NCBI GenBank assembly: GCA_045593405.1
Contig: JAZNWN010000001.1
Location: 22,926-86,925, forward strand
Reading direction: 5' to 3'
Origin: Clostridia bacterium
GTDB taxonomy: Bacteria > Bacillota > Clostridia > TANB77 > CAG-508
Length of the DNA stretch: 64,000 nucleotides
Part shown: positions 1 to 45,572 of the stretch, in pieces
How the letters are laid out: each line of letters opens with the position of its first letter
Position numbering within the stretch: the stretch's first letter is position 1
Position numbers and translations under genes: made by a program
Notes under the pieces: generated by a model
The model's database searches: none
Told to the model about the DNA's origin: nothing
Seen by the model: the letters and a program-made list of their open reading frames with translations, nothing else

Positions 1-776
1 GAGAATTAACAGCTGTATTTTTAGCAAGTAAAGAGATGAGTGTTTTATATTATTGGTTATATGGAATAGCAGCAATGCTACAAATATATTTTGATTTTTC
101 AGGTTATTCAGATATGGCAATTGGACTTGGAAAAATGTTTGGATTTGAATTTTTAGAAAATTTCAATTATCCATATATTGCAACAAGTATTACAGATTTT
201 TGGAGAAGATGGCACATATCTCTTAGCTCATGGTTTAGAGATTACATATATATTCCTCTTGGAGGGAATAGAGTAAGCAAATTAAAGTGGTTAAGGAACA
301 TTTTAGTAGTTTGGATGTTAACTGGTTTATGGCATGGAGCAGCATGGAATTTTATACTTTGGGGAACTTTCTTTGGAATATTGTTAATTATAGAAAAATT
401 ATTTTTAGGAGATATTTTAAAGAAATTACCAAAAGTTATATCAAGAATATATGTGCTACTTATTGTTATGATTAGCTTTATTATGTTTAATGGAGATAGT
501 AGCACACAAATTTTTGAAAACATTGGAGGATTAGTTGGAACAGGTGAAATTCCATTAGTATCAAAAGAAAGTATATATTATTTGAAAAGCTATTTAGTAG
601 TTATACTTGTAGGTGTAGTTGGCTCAACACCAATTATAAAAAATATTGTAAACAATATTAAAATGAAAAAAATCATAAACTTTATAGAACCAATATTTCT
701 ACTTTCAGTTTTATTAATTTGTACAAGTTATATTGTAGATGGTTCTTTTAATCCATTTTTATATTTTAGATTTTAG
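1..776 (+). CDS. MBOAT family O-acyltransferase (AlgI/DltB/PatA-like), 5-prime truncated at window edge
   Basis: Open frame runs in from the window start. Contains the WRRWHISLSSWFRDYIYIPLGGNR motif typical of membrane-bound O-acyltransferases and multiple TM segments. Confidence 0.85.
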   Translation, partial: ELTAVFLASKEMSVLYYWLYGIAAMLQIYFDFSGYSDMAIGLGKMFGFEFLENFNYPYIATSITDFWRRWHISLSSWFRDYIYIPLGGNRVSKLKWLRNILVVWMLTGLWHGAAWNFILWGTFFGILLIIEKLFLGDILKKLPKVISRIYVLLIVMISFIMFNGDSSTQIFENIGGLVGTGEIPLVSKESIYYLKSYLVVILVGVVGSTPIIKNIVNNIKMKKIINFIEPIFLLSVLLICTSYIVDGSFNPFLYFRF

Positions 777-1872: not shown

Positions 1873-1977
1873 TGTAGGGGCGATTTTAATCACCCGAAAA
1901 AATATAAAAATACATAAACATGTAGGGGCGGACTTCCACGTCCGCCCGAGGGCAGGGGTGGAACCCTGCCCCTACAA
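1873..1977. repeat. REP/BIME-like palindromic element: short unit (GTAGGGGCGATTTTAATCACCC), AT-rich spacer, then a long two-hairpin unit
   Basis: Outer stem GTAGGGG/CCCCTAC encloses hairpins GGCGGAC-TTCCAC-GTCCGCC and GGGCAGGG-GTGGAA-CCCTGCCC. The 57-nt long unit is identical to the copy at 14405-14462. Confidence 0.9.
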
Positions 1978-3770: not shown

Positions 3771-3823
3771 TGTAGGGACGAGCATTACTCGTCCGCGGGT
3801 AGGGGTGGAACCCTGCCCCTACA
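3771..3823. repeat. REP-like palindromic element (two-hairpin type, slightly degenerate)
   Basis: TGTAGGGACGAGCATTACTCGTCC...GGGGTGGAACCCTGCCCCTAC lies immediately after the sufC stop. Confidence 0.85.
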
Positions 3824-11268: not shown

Positions 11269-11293
11269 GTAGGGGTCGGCCTTGGTCGACCCG
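11269..11293. repeat. REP-like short unit (GTAGGGGTCGGCC-TTG-GTCGACCC), doubles as terminator
   Basis: GTAG-prefixed GC hairpin followed by GCTTTTTA. Located 29 nt after the ABC gene stop. Confidence 0.8.
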
Positions 11294-11307
11294 CTTTTTA
11301 TAAAGAT

Positions 11308-14404: not shown

Positions 14405-14462
14405 TGTAGGGGCGGACTTCCACGTCCGCCCGAGGGCAGGGGTGGAACCCTGCCCCTACAAA
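14405..14462. repeat. REP-like two-hairpin element, identical to 1921-1977
   Basis: TGTAGGGGCGGACTTCCACGTCCGCCCGAGGGCAGGGGTGGAACCCTGCCCCTACAA. Confidence 0.95.
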
Positions 14463-15772: not shown

Positions 15773-15800
15773 GTAGGGGCGCATGGTTGCGCCCCTTTTT
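15773..15800 (+). terminator. REP-like short hairpin acting as terminator (GTAGGGGCGCA-TGGT-TGCGCCCC-TTTTTTT)
   Basis: GTAG-prefixed GC hairpin plus T7 run immediately after the stop. Confidence 0.8.
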
Positions 15801-17079: not shown

Positions 17080-17136
17080 TGTAGGGGCAAGGTTCCACCC
17101 TTGCCCTCGGGCGGAGATGGAACTCCGCCCCTACAA
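17080..17136. repeat. REP-like two-hairpin element between the ATPase and permease genes of one operon
   Basis: TGTAGGGGC-AAGGTTCCACCCTTGCC-CTCG-GGCGGAGATGGAACTCCGCC-CCTACAA. Stems differ from the 1921 copy by compensatory changes, while the loops TTCCAC and ATGGAA are retained. Confidence 0.9.
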
Positions 17137-22444: not shown

Positions 22445-24532
22445 ATGAAAATAAAAAGGATTTTATTATTAATGTCAATATTTTTATTTGTATTAGCTTT
22501 AGCTATTATACCAAATAAAGTATTAGCAACAGAAATGAGTGAAGAGTTTAAGAACATTTTAAATGATGAAGGCGAACTAGTTGTAACAGATACCACTATG
22601 TATGAAGACAAAGTTATGTTTTTATGGGAGTACTTACTAAATTATGGTACGAGTGATTATAGCTTTGCTGTAAACTATTATAATGAAGAAGATGATACTT
22701 GTAGCATTTCAATAACTCATACTGATGAAACACATACAGTACCAGTTGTATATGAAGAGAAATATAGTGATGAATTTAAAACTATATTAAAAGATGGAAA
22801 AATAGAATTACCAACTTCTAGTAAAAATTTTTCAGCAGAGTGGATAGAAACTTATTTACAAAGATTAGGTGATGAAAATTATTTTTTTGAAATCGCTAGT
22901 TATTATGATTATGAAAAAGGTGACTATATTAAACTTATAAATGAAGATAATACTAAAGCAACTGTAGTAATGAGAGAAAATGGAGGAAGTAAGTCTGAAC
23001 GACATATAATTGAGTTTGTAAAAGTAACAGAACAAAGTGAAAATTATAAAAAATACTTGAATGAAGATGGTAAATTAGTAGTAAATGGTATTAAACCATC
23101 AAATGAAATGGAGTTTGTTGTTTTATTTGAATTATTAATCTGGAAAGAAGATCTTGATATGGGATGGGGATATATAGCAGAAGATTTTTCGTCTTGTGAT
23201 TTTACAGTTAATAATGAAACACATACAGTTGAAATTGTATATAACTATGATAGTTCAGTAAAGAGCAAATTACAAAGTTTAATAAATAATTTCCCAGAAG
23301 ATATAGAATACTTTACAGTTCAAGATATGGAATTAATAAATTATTGGGTAAATACAATAGATAATGATGATGTAAACACTTTAGCTGGATATTCTGGAGA
23401 ATTAAAATCATATATAAATAATTATAATGTAAAATTAATTGTTGACACTCGTGCTGGATGGGATACAGCTTTTATGACAGCTAGAGCTGGTATGTCATTA
23501 ATTACTCATAATGATATTGCTTATTATGCTAGTCATTGGTTAGGTGCGCAAGGAAAACATATAATTTATGTACCTAATGAAACAGGAGATTCTAAAGATG
23601 AGCTTATAGCAGCTGCTCAAAAAAGAATAAATGAATATTTAGGAGATGAAAATATAGTAACAGTATCTTATGCTGGAAAAGCTGATAGGGTTCATGCACA
23701 GTTTGAGTATGAATATTATAGAGACTGGTGGGAAATAGAAAATCCTAATATGACTCTTGATGAGTTTATAGCAGAAAATTATCCAGAAGGAATTGACCTT
23801 AGTGAGCCTATGACAGGTATTGAAAATCTTAATGCTAATGATGATGTATTTAAAGTAACTGTAAAAGTAGGAGATATAGAAAGAAGTTTTAATATTTTTA
23901 TTAAAAAAGATAGTTCAAAAATGATTTTACCTACATATGCTACAGCTGATATGAAAACAAATGTTGAAATAAGTACAGAATCTTCTTCAATTCCATTAGA
24001 CACACAAGTTCAAGCTAATAAATTGACAAGTGGAACAGAATATGAAAGAATTGTAAATATACTAGAAGTAGAAGATAATGCTACTTATGATTTAAAATTA
24101 TATTCTAATTCATTAAAAGAATTTGTTACAAAACTTGAAGATGGAACATTTGAAGTAAAAATACCAATACCAGAGGAATTAGAAGGCAAAACATTAATTG
24201 TATATTATGTTGATGAAAATGATAATGTAACAGAACATGAAGTAACTGTTAAAGATGGATTTGCATCATTCGAAACAGACCACTTTAGTACTTATGTGTT
24301 AGCAGAAAAAGTGGAAGAAGATAATAATACAGATGACACTGATTCTGGAAATGCAAATACTGGAAATCCAACTGGTAGTGGAAGTAGTAGCGAAGAAACA
24401 AATAATAACCATACAGCTACAGGAAAAAACCCACAAACTGGAGATAATATAATATTATTTGTAGCAGTTTTAGTAATTGCAGTAGTAGGTATTCTTACAA
24501 CAACAATACTAAAAAAACATAAAAACAAATAG
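22445..24532 (+). CDS. cell-wall anchored surface protein with NPQTG sorting signal (sortase B-type substrate)
   Basis: Signal peptide MKIKRILLLMSIFLFVLALA. C-terminal NPQTG, hydrophobic segment and KKHKNK tail. Internal repeats of about 120 aa containing ETHTV-x-VYEE/VYNYD. Ser/Thr/Gly/Asn-rich stalk. Confidence 0.8.
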   Translation: MKIKRILLLMSIFLFVLALAIIPNKVLATEMSEEFKNILNDEGELVVTDTTMYEDKVMFLWEYLLNYGTSDYSFAVNYYNEEDDTCSISITHTDETHTVPVVYEEKYSDEFKTILKDGKIELPTSSKNFSAEWIETYLQRLGDENYFFEIASYYDYEKGDYIKLINEDNTKATVVMRENGGSKSERHIIEFVKVTEQSENYKKYLNEDGKLVVNGIKPSNEMEFVVLFELLIWKEDLDMGWGYIAEDFSSCDFTVNNETHTVEIVYNYDSSVKSKLQSLINNFPEDIEYFTVQDMELINYWVNTIDNDDVNTLAGYSGELKSYINNYNVKLIVDTRAGWDTAFMTARAGMSLITHNDIAYYASHWLGAQGKHIIYVPNETGDSKDELIAAAQKRINEYLGDENIVTVSYAGKADRVHAQFEYEYYRDWWEIENPNMTLDEFIAENYPEGIDLSEPMTGIENLNANDDVFKVTVKVGDIERSFNIFIKKDSSKMILPTYATADMKTNVEISTESSSIPLDTQVQANKLTSGTEYERIVNILEVEDNATYDLKLYSNSLKEFVTKLEDGTFEVKIPIPEELEGKTLIVYYVDENDNVTEHEVTVKDGFASFETDHFSTYVLAEKVEEDNNTDDTDSGNANTGNPTGSGSSSEETNNNHTATGKNPQTGDNIILFVAVLVIAVVGILTTTILKKHKNK

Positions 24533-24601
24533 TTTTTGATATAATAAATAGACTAGCAAGACAATAGCTAGTCTATTTTAGTAAAAGGGGCATTATATTT
24601 T

Positions 24602-25357
24602 ATGGAAAAAAATTCTAAGAAAAAAAATAAAAGTATAGTTATTTTATCTATATTAAGAATAATCTTTATTATAGCATTAATTATATCCATAATATATATC
24701 ATAAAATGGTATATAGATAGTAAACAAAACAAAGTAATAGAACAAAAAGTCTCAGAAGCAATAACGATAGAAAATAAAGAAGATAGCAAAGATAATGAAT
24801 ATAAAATAGATTTTGAAAAGTTAAAAGAGATTAATAATGAAATAGTAGCTTGGTTAAAAGTAAGAGGCACAGATATAGAGTATTCAGTAGTACAAGCAGA
24901 TGATAATAATTATTATTTAAAAAGAAATTTAAAAAAAGAATACAATATTGCTGGATGGGTCTTTGCTGATTATAAAAATAAACTTGATGGAACAGATAAA
25001 AATATAATAATATATGGGCATAACATGAGAGATGATTCAATGTTTGGAACTTTAAAAAATGTTTTGAAAGAACAATGGTATAATAATCAAGAGAATTATA
25101 TAATTAATTTTATAACGGAAAACAGACAAGAAAAATATCAAGTGTTTTCCGTTTACCAAATAGTAAATGAAGATTATTATATAGATACAGAGTTTGAAAA
25201 TAATGAGTTTGAAGATTTCATAAAAACATTAAAGAGTAGAAGTATAAAAGATTTTAATATAGAAGTAACAAAAGAAGATACTATATTAACTCTATCTACT
25301 TGTGCAAATAATAATAAATATAGAGTAGTATTACATGCTAAAAAAATACAGGAATAA
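24602..25357 (+). CDS. srtB: class B sortase
   Basis: N-terminal membrane anchor, catalytic His (IIYGHNM) and TLSTC active-site Cys motif. Lies immediately downstream of the NPQTG protein. Confidence 0.85.
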   Translation: MEKNSKKKNKSIVILSILRIIFIIALIISIIYIIKWYIDSKQNKVIEQKVSEAITIENKEDSKDNEYKIDFEKLKEINNEIVAWLKVRGTDIEYSVVQADDNNYYLKRNLKKEYNIAGWVFADYKNKLDGTDKNIIIYGHNMRDDSMFGTLKNVLKEQWYNNQENYIINFITENRQEKYQVFSVYQIVNEDYYIDTEFENNEFEDFIKTLKSRSIKDFNIEVTKEDTILTLSTCANNNKYRVVLHAKKIQE

Positions 25358-25449: not shown

Positions 25450-26175
25450 ATGTCAGGACATAGCAAATGGCATAATATTCAAGCGAAAAAAGGAAAAGCA
25501 GATGCAGCAAGAGGAAAGATATTTACAAAATTAGGTAGAGAATTATTAATGGCTGTAAAACAAGGTGGACCAGATCCAGCAGGAAATGCAAAACTTCGAG
25601 ATGTTATTGCAAAATGTAAATCAAACAATATGCCAAATGATACAATTAATAATGCAATAAAAAGAGCAGCAGGAGCAAATAACAGTGAAAATTATGAAGA
25701 AATTACATATGAAGGATATGGACCAAATGGTGTTGCTGTAATTGTAAATGCATCAACAGATAATAAAAATAGAACAGCAGCAGATGTAAGACATGTATTT
25801 GATAAATTTGGTGGAAACTTAGGAACAGCAGGATGTGTTTCTTATATGTTTGAAAGAAAAGGTGTTATTGTAATTGAAAAAACATCAACAACTTTAAGTG
25901 AAGATGATTTAATGATGCTTGCTTTAGATAATGGTGCAGATAACATGGAAACAGACGAAGAAATCTATGAAATAACATCTGATCCAGCAGAGTTTTCTAC
26001 ATTAAGAGAAGCTTTAGAAACTAATGGATTAACATTTGCACAAGCAGAAATTCAAATGGTTCCAAGTACATATGTTTCATTAGATGAAAATGGAGTAAGA
26101 AGAATGGAATTATTACTAGAAAAATTAGATGAATTAGATGATGTAATAGAAGTATTTCATAATTGGGAAGAATAG
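25450..26175 (+). CDS. YebC/PmpR family DNA-binding transcriptional regulator
   Basis: Characteristic N-terminus [31 protein letters not shown]. Confidence 0.95.
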
Positions 26176-26182
26176 AATTTTG

Positions 26183-26259
26183 TGTAGGGGTCGGTCTTGA
26201 CCGACCCGAAAATAAATATATTATAATCATAACGGGCTGGTCTTGACCAGCCCCTACAA
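26183..26259. repeat. BIME-like composite: two inverted REP-like half units (GGGTCGGTC-TTG-ACCGACCC and GGGCTGGTC-TTG-ACCAGCCC) flanking a 25-nt AT-rich spacer
   Basis: TGTAGGGG at the left end and CCCCTACAA at the right end. Same architecture at 37340-37417 and 44337-44417. Confidence 0.9.
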
Positions 26260-26261
26260 AT

Positions 26262-27488
26262 TTATAATGTAATCAATTTATTTGTTAAATCCAAATTTGC
26301 TTTTGGATTTTTTTTGTAACCCAAAGTATAAATATTGCTTGCAAACATATCTTTCTCAAGCATTTTTTTTAATATTTTATTTTTATTTGTATCTAAAAAT
26401 TTCTTAGGAGAAGTAACAATATTCAATTTCTTATTTGTTTTTGATATTTTAGATAGTAGCTCTTTTCCTTTTTGATTTACTCCAAGTACACGGATGTAGG
26501 GAAGAACTTTATAAGAATCTTCAATATCTTTTTTAGTAATGTTTAATAAAACGTATAATAAAATTCTATTAATTCTTGTCATGGTATATCTTTTTGATTT
26601 AATCATATTAGTTAAATCTACTAATGTATTACAAGAGTCAGAGGCTTTTTTAATTTTATTTTCTAAACCTTCAGAAACATCAGGGAGGATTGATATTTCT
26701 TGGGTACTCATAGTTCTTAATTTATATAGAATTGCTTGCTCAAAAGTAGCAATTCCGGGAACGAATTCATTTTTTGAAATTTTATCTTGCAAAATTTTAT
26801 AAGAAGCTTTTGGCATACATTTTTCAAGATTTTCACCATTTGCAATCCCTTGTCTAATTGCAGTTGCACTAGGATAAAAATCTTCTAGATCAGTACTATT
26901 ATATTTTGATCCTTTTCTTGTAACTGTAACTGCACTTAATCTAGCTTTTTGTTTTTGTATGGCTTTCAAATATTCTATTCCTAAAATATTATTAGATTCA
27001 GAAAGTATATTTGCATATTTGCGAATATCATTTAAATACATTAAAAGAGCATGTTCACGTGCTTTTGGAAATGATACTCCTAAGGAAAGCTCATGATTTA
27101 GTATAGATAAATATTCTGGTGGTTCTTGAACTAAAACTTTTGCAATTTCATTTAAAACAGAAATGTTTCCAGATTCACTTCCAAAAGAAATAGTAGTATC
27201 CATGTTTAAGCTATTTAAAATTTTTATAGCTCCCATAGCAAAATTTTCAGCACTTGAAATACTATACACTAAAGGTAATTCAATTACTAAATCAACACCA
27301 TTTTTTAAGGCCATTTCAGCTCTAGACCATTTATCTATAATTGCTGTATCTCCACGTTCTACAAAATTACCACTCATAATTGCAACTGTATAGTCAGGTT
27401 TAATAATTCTTTTAGATTCTTTTAAATGATATAAATGACCTAAATGAAATGGATTATATTCACTTACTATTCCTAATATTTTATCCAT
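26262..27488 (-). CDS. tmcAL: tRNA(Met) cytidine acetate ligase (YlbM/UPF0348 nucleotidyltransferase family)
   Basis: N-terminus MDKILGIVSEYNPFHLGHLYHL (HxGH nucleotidyltransferase motif). About 400 aa, as expected for this family. Confidence 0.8.
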   Translation of the reverse strand: MDKILGIVSEYNPFHLGHLYHLKESKRIIKPDYTVAIMSGNFVERGDTAIIDKWSRAEMALKNGVDLVIELPLVYSISSAENFAMGAIKILNSLNMDTTISFGSESGNISVLNEIAKVLVQEPPEYLSILNHELSLGVSFPKAREHALLMYLNDIRKYANILSESNNILGIEYLKAIQKQKARLSAVTVTRKGSKYNSTDLEDFYPSATAIRQGIANGENLEKCMPKASYKILQDKISKNEFVPGIATFEQAILYKLRTMSTQEISILPDVSEGLENKIKKASDSCNTLVDLTNMIKSKRYTMTRINRILLYVLLNITKKDIEDSYKVLPYIRVLGVNQKGKELLSKISKTNKKLNIVTSPKKFLDTNKNKILKKMLEKDMFASNIYTLGYKKNPKANLDLTNKLITL

Positions 27489-27559: not shown

Positions 27560-27730
27560 GAGATTAGATAAATACTTCGAAGAAATGGCAAGAGAGCCCC
27601 TTTAATAAGGGGGCAGTCACCGTTAGGTGACTGGGGGTTCTTTCTAAGGAGTTTTAAGAACCCTCCGTCAGCCTTCGGATGCCACCTCCCTTGTTAAAGG
27701 AGGTTTCTTGCAAGGTCATCGAAGCATAAA
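27560..27730. ncRNA. candidate structured RNA / leader element (GC-rich multi-hairpin domain), identity unresolved
   Basis: Lies in the AT-rich divergent intergenic region between tmcAL and rnhA. Four consecutive GC-rich hairpins (CCCCTT..AAGGGG, CAGTCACC..GTGACTG, GGGTTCTT..AAGAACCC, CCTCC..GGAGG) are enclosed by a closing helix (GCAAGA..TCTTGC, CTTCGA..TCGAAG). Confidence 0.35.
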
Positions 27731-28539: not shown

Positions 28540-28563
28540 TGTAGGGGCGATTTTAATCGCCCG
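28540..28563. repeat. REP-like short unit GTAGGGGCGATTTTAATCGCCC
   Basis: Nearly identical to the short units at 1873 and 41622. Confidence 0.9.
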
Positions 28564-28689
28564 TGTTTCGAAGATATATTTTTAAATATTGGCATTTCTA
28601 CAATTTTATTAAAAAAAAGTTGATTTTTATTTTTTTTTGATATATAATATCACACGGTTAAAAAAAGAAAAAAGAAAGAAGGTTTGTTT

Positions 28690-36692: not shown

Positions 36693-36747
36693 CGTAGGGG
36701 GTCGGTCTTGACCGACCCGAGGGGTAGTCAAGACTAGCCCCTACAAA
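36693..36747. repeat. REP-like two-hairpin element (GGGTCGGTC-TTG-ACCGACCC and GGGGTAGTC-AAG-ACTAGCCCC)
   Basis: CGTAGGGGG...CCCCTACAA lies directly after the proS stop. Confidence 0.9.
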
Positions 36748-37339: not shown

Positions 37340-37417
37340 CGTAGGGGCTGGTCTTGACTAGCCCGCTAAATAACAAATATAATTATTTTCGGGTCGGTCA
37401 AGACCGACCCCTACAAA
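37340..37417. repeat. BIME-like composite (GGGCTGGTC-TTG-ACTAGCCC, 26-nt AT spacer, GGGTCGGTC-AAG-ACCGACCC)
   Basis: Same units as 26183-26259, with the two halves in swapped order. Confidence 0.9.
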
Positions 37418-38017: not shown

Positions 38018-38075
38018 TGTAGGGGCAGGGTTCCATCCCTGCCCGCGGGCGGACGTGGAAGTCCACCCCCTACAA
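38018..38075. repeat. REP-like two-hairpin element in inverted orientation relative to 1921-1977
   Basis: TGTAGGGGCAGGGTTCCATCCCTGCC-CGCG-GGCGGACGTGGAAGTCCACC-CCCTACAA. Confidence 0.9.
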
Positions 38076-38652: not shown

Positions 38653-38660
38653 TTTTACTG

Positions 38661-38812
38661 ACCGCCAAATCTCATCGGGGCATATATATTTGTATTTTTA
38701 TCGCTGCCCCATCCAAGAAAATGTAATTCACTTTGTTCAAACATTTTCTAAGGCGGTCACCCCGGAATCACTCTAAAAATAAAATATATATGCCCCTGCG
38801 TTTGGCTTATTG
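38661..38812. repeat. MITE-like segment bounded by about 23-bp imperfect inverted repeats (GCCAAATCTCATCGGGGCATATATAT / ATATATATGCCCCTGCGTTTGGC)
   Basis: Inverted termini read directly. The internal motif CCGATGAGATTTGGCGGTC recurs at 41668-41686 as CCGACGAGATTTGGCGGAC. Confidence 0.55.
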
Positions 38813-38843
38813 TTAAAAAAATTAACAGGAAAGGTGAAATAAG

Positions 38844-41621: not shown

Positions 41622-41644
41622 TGTAGGGGCGATTTTAATCGCCC
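41622..41644. repeat. REP-like short unit GTAGGGGCGATTTTAATCGCCC
   Basis: Third copy of the short unit, the others being at 1873 and 28540. Confidence 0.9.
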
Positions 41645-41720
41645 TCACATTAAAAACATATAACACCGACGAGATTTGGCGGACGTTGAAAGATAATGGT
41701 TAAATAAAAAAGGAATTAAT

Positions 41721-43218: not shown

Positions 43219-43279
43219 TGTAGGGGAGGACTTCCACGTCCACCCGTGGTACAGGGGGGGAGAACACTGCACCTACGAA
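43219..43279. repeat. REP-like two-hairpin element, degenerate, contains a G7 run
   Basis: TGTAGGGGAGGACTTCCACGTCCACC...ACCTACGAA. Confidence 0.75.

Positions 43280-44336: not shown

Positions 44337-45572
<1,236 letters not shown>

Follow-up and report, generated by a model that had tools for sequence, protein, structure and literature searches.

The 64-kb stretch of Clostridia DNA that we analysed (64,000 nucleotides in full; hereafter the window) carries at positions 26184-26257 a genuine copy of a small mobile palindromic repeat, namely a head-to-head pair of GTAG-tagged REP units of the REPIN class. The copy consists of the unit GTAGGGGTCGGTCTTGACCGACCCG, a 24-nt spacer AAAATAAATATATTATAATCATAA and the inverse unit CGGGCTGGTCTTGACCAGCCCCTAC, and it fills the 86-nt gap between two convergent genes, those for YebC (25450-26175, + strand) and for a HIGH_NTase1 protein (26262-27488, - strand). 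When one arm is reverse-complemented, 19 of its 25 positions are identical to the other. The left unit folded alone to -15.3 kcal/mol with its GTAG unpaired, and the whole composite folded to -38.2 kcal/mol (z = -7.6). The element class is a known one; its host here is an uncultured gut Firmicute of low GC content, and we found no earlier report of such repeats from that group. We consider it likely that elements of this kind are REPIN-like head-to-head dimers of GTAG-tagged REPs that are moved by a RAYT-type enzyme and are tolerated, or used, as hairpins at RNA 3' ends.

Fourteen related elements were found in the window: three spaced doublets, six compact doublets without spacer, one trimer and four free singletons (Table 1). 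The window has a GC content of 28%, with nearly all genes on the + strand. All of the elements are intergenic, and the sole other GC-rich intergenic island lies at 38750-38767. The consensus unit is 23 to 27 nt long and reads (T)GTAGGGG-stem-loop-stem-CCCG, with an unpaired GTAG head at the 5' end and a CCCG foot. The stems are mostly 8 to 9 bp of GC-rich sequence, and the loops have 4 to 6 nt. Among the 24 units, the tag is GTAGGGG in 22, GTAGGGA in one and GTAGAGG in one, and a T immediately precedes GTAG in 20 of 23 tags. GTAGGGG was observed 23 times in the window, one of these copies being internal to another unit, against an expectation of 1.36; none of 100 shuffles reached 23. Single units folded to -11 to -19 kcal/mol, and GTAG was free in most of the 24. 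At least ten stem sequences occur in the window, with complementarity kept in most of them. Stem and loop lengths vary among 22 window units and their 3' halves do not align; the anatomy given here is that of per-unit folds, and the pairing count reported below was made on fixed-length metagenome units.

Table 1. GTAG-tagged repeat elements of the 64-kb window. Letters denote unit types; positions are counted from the first nucleotide of the window.
Element	Unit types	Position	Strand	Remarks
Trimer	E, A/B	1874..1975	.	singleton unit E (1874-1896), 25-nt AT stretch, compact doublet A/B (1922-1975)
Compact doublet	I/B	3772..3822	.	left tag GTAGGGA
Singleton	H	11269..11294	+	followed by T run, terminator-like
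Compact doublet	A/B	14406..14459	.	same sequence as 1922-1975
Singleton	G	15773..15796	+	followed by TTTTTTT, canonical terminator shape
Compact doublet	F/A*	17081..17134	.	starts 1 nt past stop
Focal composite, left REP unit	C	26184..26208	+	unpaired GTAG head, 8-bp GC stem, 4-nt loop
Focal composite, AT-rich spacer AAAATAAATATATTATAATCATAA		26209..26232	.	24 nt; loop of the long hairpin in the predicted fold
Focal composite, right REP unit, inverted	D	26233..26257	-	GTAG head on - strand
Singleton	E	28541..28563	+	tail GTGTTTCGAAGA
Compact doublet	C/D*	36694..36744	.	unit pair of the focal composite without spacer; between ProS and Maf
Spaced doublet	D..C	37341..37414	-	24-nt AT spacer; the 26184 composite in opposite orientation; between Maf and Ham1-family (RdgB-like) gene
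Compact doublet	B/A	38019..38073	.	1922-type element reversed; starts 1 nt past stop
Singleton	E	41623..41645	+	free singleton
Compact doublet, decayed		43220..43276	.	left arm A-like, right arm degenerate
Spaced doublet, degenerate	J..J*	44338..44415	.	24-nt AT spacer; between QueA and Tgt

A search against Rfam gave no match at gathering thresholds. With relaxed thresholds, the only matches were spurious ones between microRNA precursors and the long hairpin. CRISPR arrays, integron attC sites and riboswitches were also dropped as candidates, there being no arrays or cassettes, housekeeping genes as neighbours and copies in both orientations.

The original prediction had placed composites of two different hairpin units at 26183-26259, 37340-37417 and 44337-44417, with a short-plus-long variant at 1873-1977. 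The three positions were confirmed to within 1-2 nt, with spacers of 24 nt, and the variant corresponds to the trimer at 1874-1975, in which a short unit and a 25-nt AT stretch precede a compact doublet. Six compact doublets and four singletons of the same family had been missed. The two units of a composite are, however, diverged inverted copies of one type, with 19 of 25 identical positions between the arms at 26184 and 20 of 25 at 37341. Because of this relationship between the arms, the predicted minimum-energy fold of all three spaced composites is one long imperfect hairpin (z = -7.1 to -9.6) and not a pair of hairpins as had been supposed. The composite at 37341 folded to -43.1 kcal/mol (z = -9.6) and the one at 44338, in which the right tag has decayed to GTAGAGG, to -40.8 kcal/mol (z = -7.1).

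The reverse complement of the 37341 composite matches the 26184 composite unit for unit, the spacers being alike at about 15 of 24 positions as counted by hand from the alignment. The swapped order that had been noticed between these two sites does involve the same two units, but it is one composite reversed and not a separate arrangement. The units were not paired at random. C was paired with D at 26184, 36694 and 37341, in both orientations, and A with B at 1922, 14406 and 38019 as well as in a related locus (L002). The A/B doublets at 1922-1975 and 14406-14459, 12 kb apart, are identical at 54 of 54 positions. What recurs, in one orientation or the other, is the doublet as a fixed whole, and the description as combinatorial, which had been applied to these elements, is not supported. 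Since the C/D pair at 36694 exists without a spacer, the spacer is optional. As for the orientation of the pairs, the window has eight with GTAG outside (HH), none with GTAG inside (TT) and one in tandem (HT); the corresponding numbers for the metagenome loci are 69, 35 and 64.

The unit family is not confined to the window. The pattern GTAGGGGCNNNNTTCCAYNNNNGCCC matched at least 120 metagenome stretches and five viral contigs; the matches listed have GC contents of 25-70%, and their sources include termite gut, human gut and fermenters. We counted the base pairing at the eight unconstrained stem bases of 41 distinct units, where 149 of 164 positions were paired (135 Watson-Crick and 14 G:T), as opposed to a mean of 82 and a maximum of 97 Watson-Crick pairs in a partner-shuffled control. 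By this count, it is the hairpin that is maintained in these units. Doublets with heads outside were also present elsewhere, as a compact form (L080), with AT-rich spacers (L152, L174) and in clusters (L069).

A tblastn search with the E. coli RayT protein revealed RAYT-like ORFs in L097, L070, L113, L074, L148 and L150. The ORF lies beside or around matched units in L070, L074, L113, L148 and L150, and the pattern matches in L097 are kilobases away from it. Overall, matches to the pattern were often situated next to or within RAYT-like Y1 transposase genes. The L148 protein had 1721 homologues at E ≤ 1e-5, several of which are named RayT and attributed to Clostridia or Bacillota. The RAYT-like proteins passed the Pfam Y1_Tnp model, and their best NCBIfam model was REP_Tyr_transpos with 61-78 bits, compared to 25-31 bits for IS200; the NCBI cut-off for RayT is 80 bits, and the Clostridial proteins fall just below it. 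In L178 (30% GC), the RAYT-like gene is flanked by an upstream unit on the + strand and a downstream unit on the - strand, which is the classical REPtron layout, and in L198, a 28% GC contig, a unit is located just past the stop codon of the gene. A RAYT-like gene is thus flanked by or associated with the unit family in several other organisms (L178, L113, L074, L148 and L198). A motif scan and tblastn with E. coli RayT, applied to the window and to related loci totalling about 0.8 Mb, detected neither a RAYT gene nor any other Y1 transposase gene. The AT-rich RAYT homologues P0026, P0021, P0111, P0010 and P0006 are encoded on contigs of 28-37% GC with the expected repeats, and none of them could be linked to the lineage of the window.

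The relatives of the window identified through ProS were metagenome-assembled genomes of uncultured gut Clostridia and Bacilli, the best being UMGS1933 with 93% identity; Clostridium sp. CAG:914 showed 73%. We compared the orthologous sites of the syntenic ProS-Maf-RdgB-HD operon between the window and the loci L001 to L004. At the ProS-Maf site, the window has the C/D doublet, L001 another singleton and L002 an A/B doublet; L003 has a repeat unrelated to these units, and L004 has no element. The Maf-RdgB site holds the spaced D..C doublet in the window, a B singleton in L002 and, in L003, a unit of type D whose partner arm is degenerate; L004 has nothing there, and the Maf gene itself is absent in L001. 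The RdgB-HD site contains the B/A doublet in the window and another unit in L002 and is empty in L001 and L004, a comparison that excludes L003 because its contig ends before the site. Spacers at the empty sites of the sister genomes are 13-30 nt long. Furthermore, the intergenic region of the singleton at 28541 is about 524 nt long in the window; in L004, which does not have the unit, its length is about 109 nt. The comparison of filled with empty sites yielded no target-site signature.

For the site of the focal composite, close homologues of YebC were used, an exact-protein look-up of the window YebC having returned no match; a single YebC variant, P0128, occurs on 77 contigs. Relatives with a 98%-identical YebC have one 27-nt GTAG...CTAC hairpin there (GTAGGGGGCGCAATCATGCGCCCCTAC), and in relatives at 95% identity an ordinary terminator hairpin, bidirectional in type, takes the place of the 74-nt doublet of the window. 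The repeat content of the window and of the 98% relatives also differs at further intergenic sites. The elements thus turn over on the time scale of strains, and the differing contents of orthologous sites in close relatives indicate mobility. This agrees with the original prediction, which had favoured a mobile element over independent terminators: orthologous sites are filled, differently filled or empty, presence/absence polymorphism extends to close relatives, and some relatives have the same family, sometimes the same unit type, at these sites, others a different unit or none. The outcome that would have counted against the prediction, unrelated sequence with no unit types in common, was not obtained.

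Part of this variation could have arisen without a dedicated transposase, if existing hairpins exchanged sequence through homologous recombination or gene conversion or if resident terminators were replaced. The same three intergenic spots hold different unit types in the window, L001, L002 and L003, and gene conversion or replacement at hairpins already in place could also produce the pattern. The series at the focal site from a plain terminator to a 27-nt GTAG hairpin and a 74-nt doublet is also compatible with such a process, as is the lack of a transposase gene in the 64-kb window. However, conversion requires flanking homology, and none is visible around the copies. For those sites that the window has filled and L004 has empty, an element must have been inserted where no hairpin stood. 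In other organisms, moreover, there is a physical link between the units and genes for RAYT-like proteins. We consider spread by conversion alone to be unlikely.

The position of the elements relative to the genes is regular. Twelve of the 14 start 1-28 nt past a stop codon, seven of these within 3 nt and most of the elements at a distance of 1-17 nt, and the operon-internal doublets end 15-37 nt before the next start codon, often with the ribosome-binding site directly 3'. For example, the 37341 composite starts 3 nt past the Maf stop codon and ends 30 nt short of the next start codon, the 44338 composite starts 1 nt past the QueA stop codon, and the trimer starts 2 nt past a stop codon and is adjoined at its 3' end by a ribosome-binding site. 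A T run typical of intrinsic terminators is present only at the singletons 11269 and 15773; the focal composite and the other doublets have no T run 3' of the hairpin.

The location of most elements just 3' of stop codons would be expected of ordinary terminators or operon-internal RNA stabiliser hairpins that evolved in place, their likeness being a convergence of GC hairpins in an AT-rich genome. The two singletons with T runs score as terminators, and the 95%-identical relatives have a plain bidirectional terminator at the focal site. Such an origin is nevertheless inconsistent with several features of the doublets, which have no T tract and lie within operons ahead of ribosome-binding sites. 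It does not account for the complete identity of two copies 12 kb apart, for the occurrence of one pair in both orientations or for the GTAG tag on the copies, which a terminator does not need. The same unit sequences on unrelated contigs of widely differing GC content and the empty sites with short spacers in sister genomes also argue against it, and we regard evolution in place as quite improbable. A MITE of a DDE transposon with TGTAGGGG as its terminal inverted repeat would fit the inverted termini TGTAGGGG...CCCCTACA and the element lengths of 51-78 nt, but it is hardly credible given that direct target-site duplications are absent at every copy, singleton half-elements are common, no DDE transposase with such ends was seen and Y1/HUH is the sole transposase family found beside the units.

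In the explanation that we favour, head-to-head dimers of GTAG-tagged REPs moved by a RAYT-type enzyme, the pair of units that meet at their feet and bear GTAG at both outer ends (HH dimer or REPIN) would be what replicates, and the 24-nt AT spacer would be its optional middle part. The enzyme, whose gene would lie in another part of the genome, would excise copies in the form of single-stranded DNA hairpins and insert them anew. Against this explanation stand the lack of a Y1 transposase gene in the loci searched, the RayT scores just below the cut-off, the modest repetition reported for sequences flanking RAYT genes of the Clostridial group and the missing target-site signature. They may persist just past stop codons because that position is harmless, and the RNA hairpins predicted for them (-33 to -43 kcal/mol) may act as 3'-end barriers, terminators or attenuators.

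We compared the window elements with known repeat systems. GTAG-tagged REPs were described by Di Nocera, De Gregorio and Rocco in 2013 (PMC3733652) as an unpaired GTAG beside a GC stem-loop, with stems of 6-13 bp and short loops. In their survey, HH dimers predominate, as homo- and heterodimers with partners 1-5 bp or 20-100 bp apart. Stem substitutions that preserve pairing, G:T included, set the sub-families apart, the two ends of a spacer are in many cases complementary, and a singleton and a dimer can be combined into a trimer (PMC3733652). The copies are found 3' of ORFs whose neighbour is co-directional or convergent, and they flank RAYT genes. The repeats were reported from Proteobacteria, Cyanobacteria, Chloroflexi and the PVC group, with no mention of Firmicutes (PMC3733652). 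The window elements resemble these repeats in the tag, the stem-loop, the stem variants, the HH dimers, the heterodimers, the partner distances and spacers, the trimer and the position, and the unit family in other organisms resembles them in the flanking of RAYT genes. They differ in the host, a 28% GC Firmicute in which the repeats are nearly the only GC islands between genes. The survey distinguishes 24 GTAG families; the comparison made here is with the GTAG-tagged REPs as a whole.

The window elements also share with REPINs the two inverted REPs, the short spacer and the fold into one long hairpin. The term REPIN reportedly goes back to Bertels and Rainey in 2011. Furthermore, in both cases it is the doublet that recurs and not the lone REP, the singletons have the look of leftovers, copies diverge slightly from one another within a population, and movement is ascribed presumptively to a Y1 transposase. 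In the window, the doublet behaves as the copied unit, with A/B present three times there and once in L002, and C/D three times. The differences are that the inner stems of the two arms in the window are in many cases heterologous, A/B being an example, and that the commonest form is without a spacer. RAYT Group 1 was found in Clostridia by Bertels, Gallie and Rainey in 2017 (PMC5581495) with flanking 16-mers that were modestly repeated; abundant repeats and REPIN populations were tied to RAYT Groups 2 and 3 alone, in Proteobacteria.

The likeness to E. coli BIMEs, which had been the original interpretation, lies in inverted REP units that alternate with short segments and are extragenic, at gene ends. 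E. coli BIMEs have the unit types Y, Z1 and Z2 and named linker motifs, bind IHF or gyrase and often form long tandem arrays. In contrast, the window has at least ten stem types, and its largest array is a trimer. Its spacers are only weakly alike (about 15 of 24 positions, AT-rich), and there is a second spacer class, a 12-nt sequence CACTTCGAAGAA that joins two units in L185, beside the 24-nt AT spacer. The parallel therefore holds for REP-like units in inverted pairs, but the elements are not BIMEs in the strict E. coli sense; their closest counterpart is the HH dimer or REPIN, and they have those defining features of GTAG REPs and REPINs that were tested.

IS200/IS605 elements are similar in that single-strand hairpins are the substrates of a Y1 HUH enzyme and that a short unpaired motif is needed beside the hairpin. 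They differ from the window elements, which are without distinct left and right ends and without cargo, and the proteins associated with the units score far better on the RayT than on the IS200 model. Under IS200/IS605-type single-strand chemistry, GTAG is expected on the lagging-strand template. The GC skew is about +0.2 across the window, and going by its positive sign we take the + strand to be the lagging-strand template. All five singleton units, the four free ones and that of the trimer, have GTAG on the + strand, which is consistent with such a bias, although this orientation is confounded with the direction of transcription, nearly all genes being on the + strand.

Nearly all work on REPs, REPINs and the domesticated transposases that go with them has been done in Proteobacteria. 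A dense repeat population that turns over between near-identical strains of an uncultured, reduced gut Firmicute of 28% GC extends the host range of the system. It also offers favourable conditions for study, as there are almost no other GC islands between genes, and insertion, decay and terminator replacement can be traced across metagenome strains. Such repeats can be expected to break short-read assemblies and to confuse the prediction of terminators and small RNAs in genomes of this kind. Moreover, operon-internal hairpins 1-3 nt past stop codons may influence how stable the mRNA is and how housekeeping genes are expressed.

The RAYT-like genes of this clade were observed to contain two in-frame REP units, heads outside, that flank the HUH motif. 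These are located at 572-598 (+) and 735-767 (-) in L148, at 10118 and 10308 in L182, at 10115 and 10299 in L192 and at 1667 and 1857 in L198, and they are translated as V-G-x-G-F-H-x-x-P and G-G-H-G-N-P-P-L (proteins P0001-P0120). The variable residues co-vary among the 96 motif-bearing proteins, with the combinations E-L (53), G-A (21), D-V (5), G-T (4), A-R (3) and V-D (2). Because this co-variation matches the complementarity of the hairpin, the nucleic-acid hairpin and not the peptide is apparently conserved. The window doublets may belong to one widespread REP lineage (GTAGGGG-stem-TTCCAY-stem-CCCG) whose RAYT-like partner gene has in-frame head-to-head hairpins around HUH, an idea that we put forward tentatively and hold to be doubtful at present. 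If it is true, a transposase gene that holds its own substrate would be a REP-RAYT arrangement of which we found no description in the literature. The in-gene copy could then serve autoregulation or be the source of short doublets via internal deletion, and it could explain the conservation of the repeat across distant hosts.

Single GTAG units that are apparently in frame within coding regions, as judged by eye from the flanking sequence, were seen on contigs of 34-36% GC (L114:232-257 and 7046; L147:3119 and 3533; L060:4338). They resemble the intragenic REPs of Di Nocera 2013. Units were also found on contigs classed as viral, including L054 (2233 and 3443) and L057 (at least six copies); one of these contigs has 28% GC and resembles the lineage of the window, and several have 62-66% GC. 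Either the phages of the hosts carry the repeats or the contigs are misclassified.

Some variation was observed at the ends of the units. L187 (12749-12807) and L190 (12749-12808) encode the same YebC protein as L186 (12736) and differ from it by a 46-nt AT-rich insertion, which is flanked by duplicated ACAATTGTAGGGG and located exactly at the REP head. Cleavage or slippage at the GTAG tag may have left this insertion behind. Singletons of this lineage often have, 2-4 nt past their CCCG, a conserved tail that includes TTCGAAG (window 28564-28575; L054:2255-2275; L185:3385-3400; L186:12760-12775; L002:8520-8535).

Other differences between the window and its relatives were also seen. Two genes at 22445-25357 separate FeoB from YebC in the window, and FeoB and YebC are adjacent in the 98% relatives L184 and L185. 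The first encodes a 695-aa protein with a C-terminal NPQTG-like sorting signal followed by a hydrophobic stretch, and the second a 251-aa protein with a sortase-like TLSTC motif. This region looks like a recent gain or loss of 3 kb. The repeat at the ProS-Maf site of L003 (7013-7150) is another inverted-repeat element of about 140 nt (GAGAAGTGAGAAGTTAGAGG … CCCCCACTTCACACATCTCACTTCT) with no GTAG doublet, and since this non-GTAG element is present there, inserts of more than one kind can occupy the spot. Upstream of the RNase H gene, at 27590-27720, the window has a GC-rich, structured-looking segment (GAGCCCCTTTAATAAGGGGGCAGTCACCGTTAGGTGACTGGGGG…) that gave no Rfam match at gathering thresholds; the same position has a GTAG singleton in L184 and unrelated AT-rich sequence in L186. 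Finally, the HD-Pta intergenic region (38653-38843) contains an insertion, about 160 nt in length, whose ends contain GC and are inverted relative to each other (…CCGCCAAATCTCATCGGGGCATATATAT … ATATATATGCCCCTGCGTTTGG…), a second repeat type with no relation to the GTAG units, which is absent in L001 and L004 and partial in L002.
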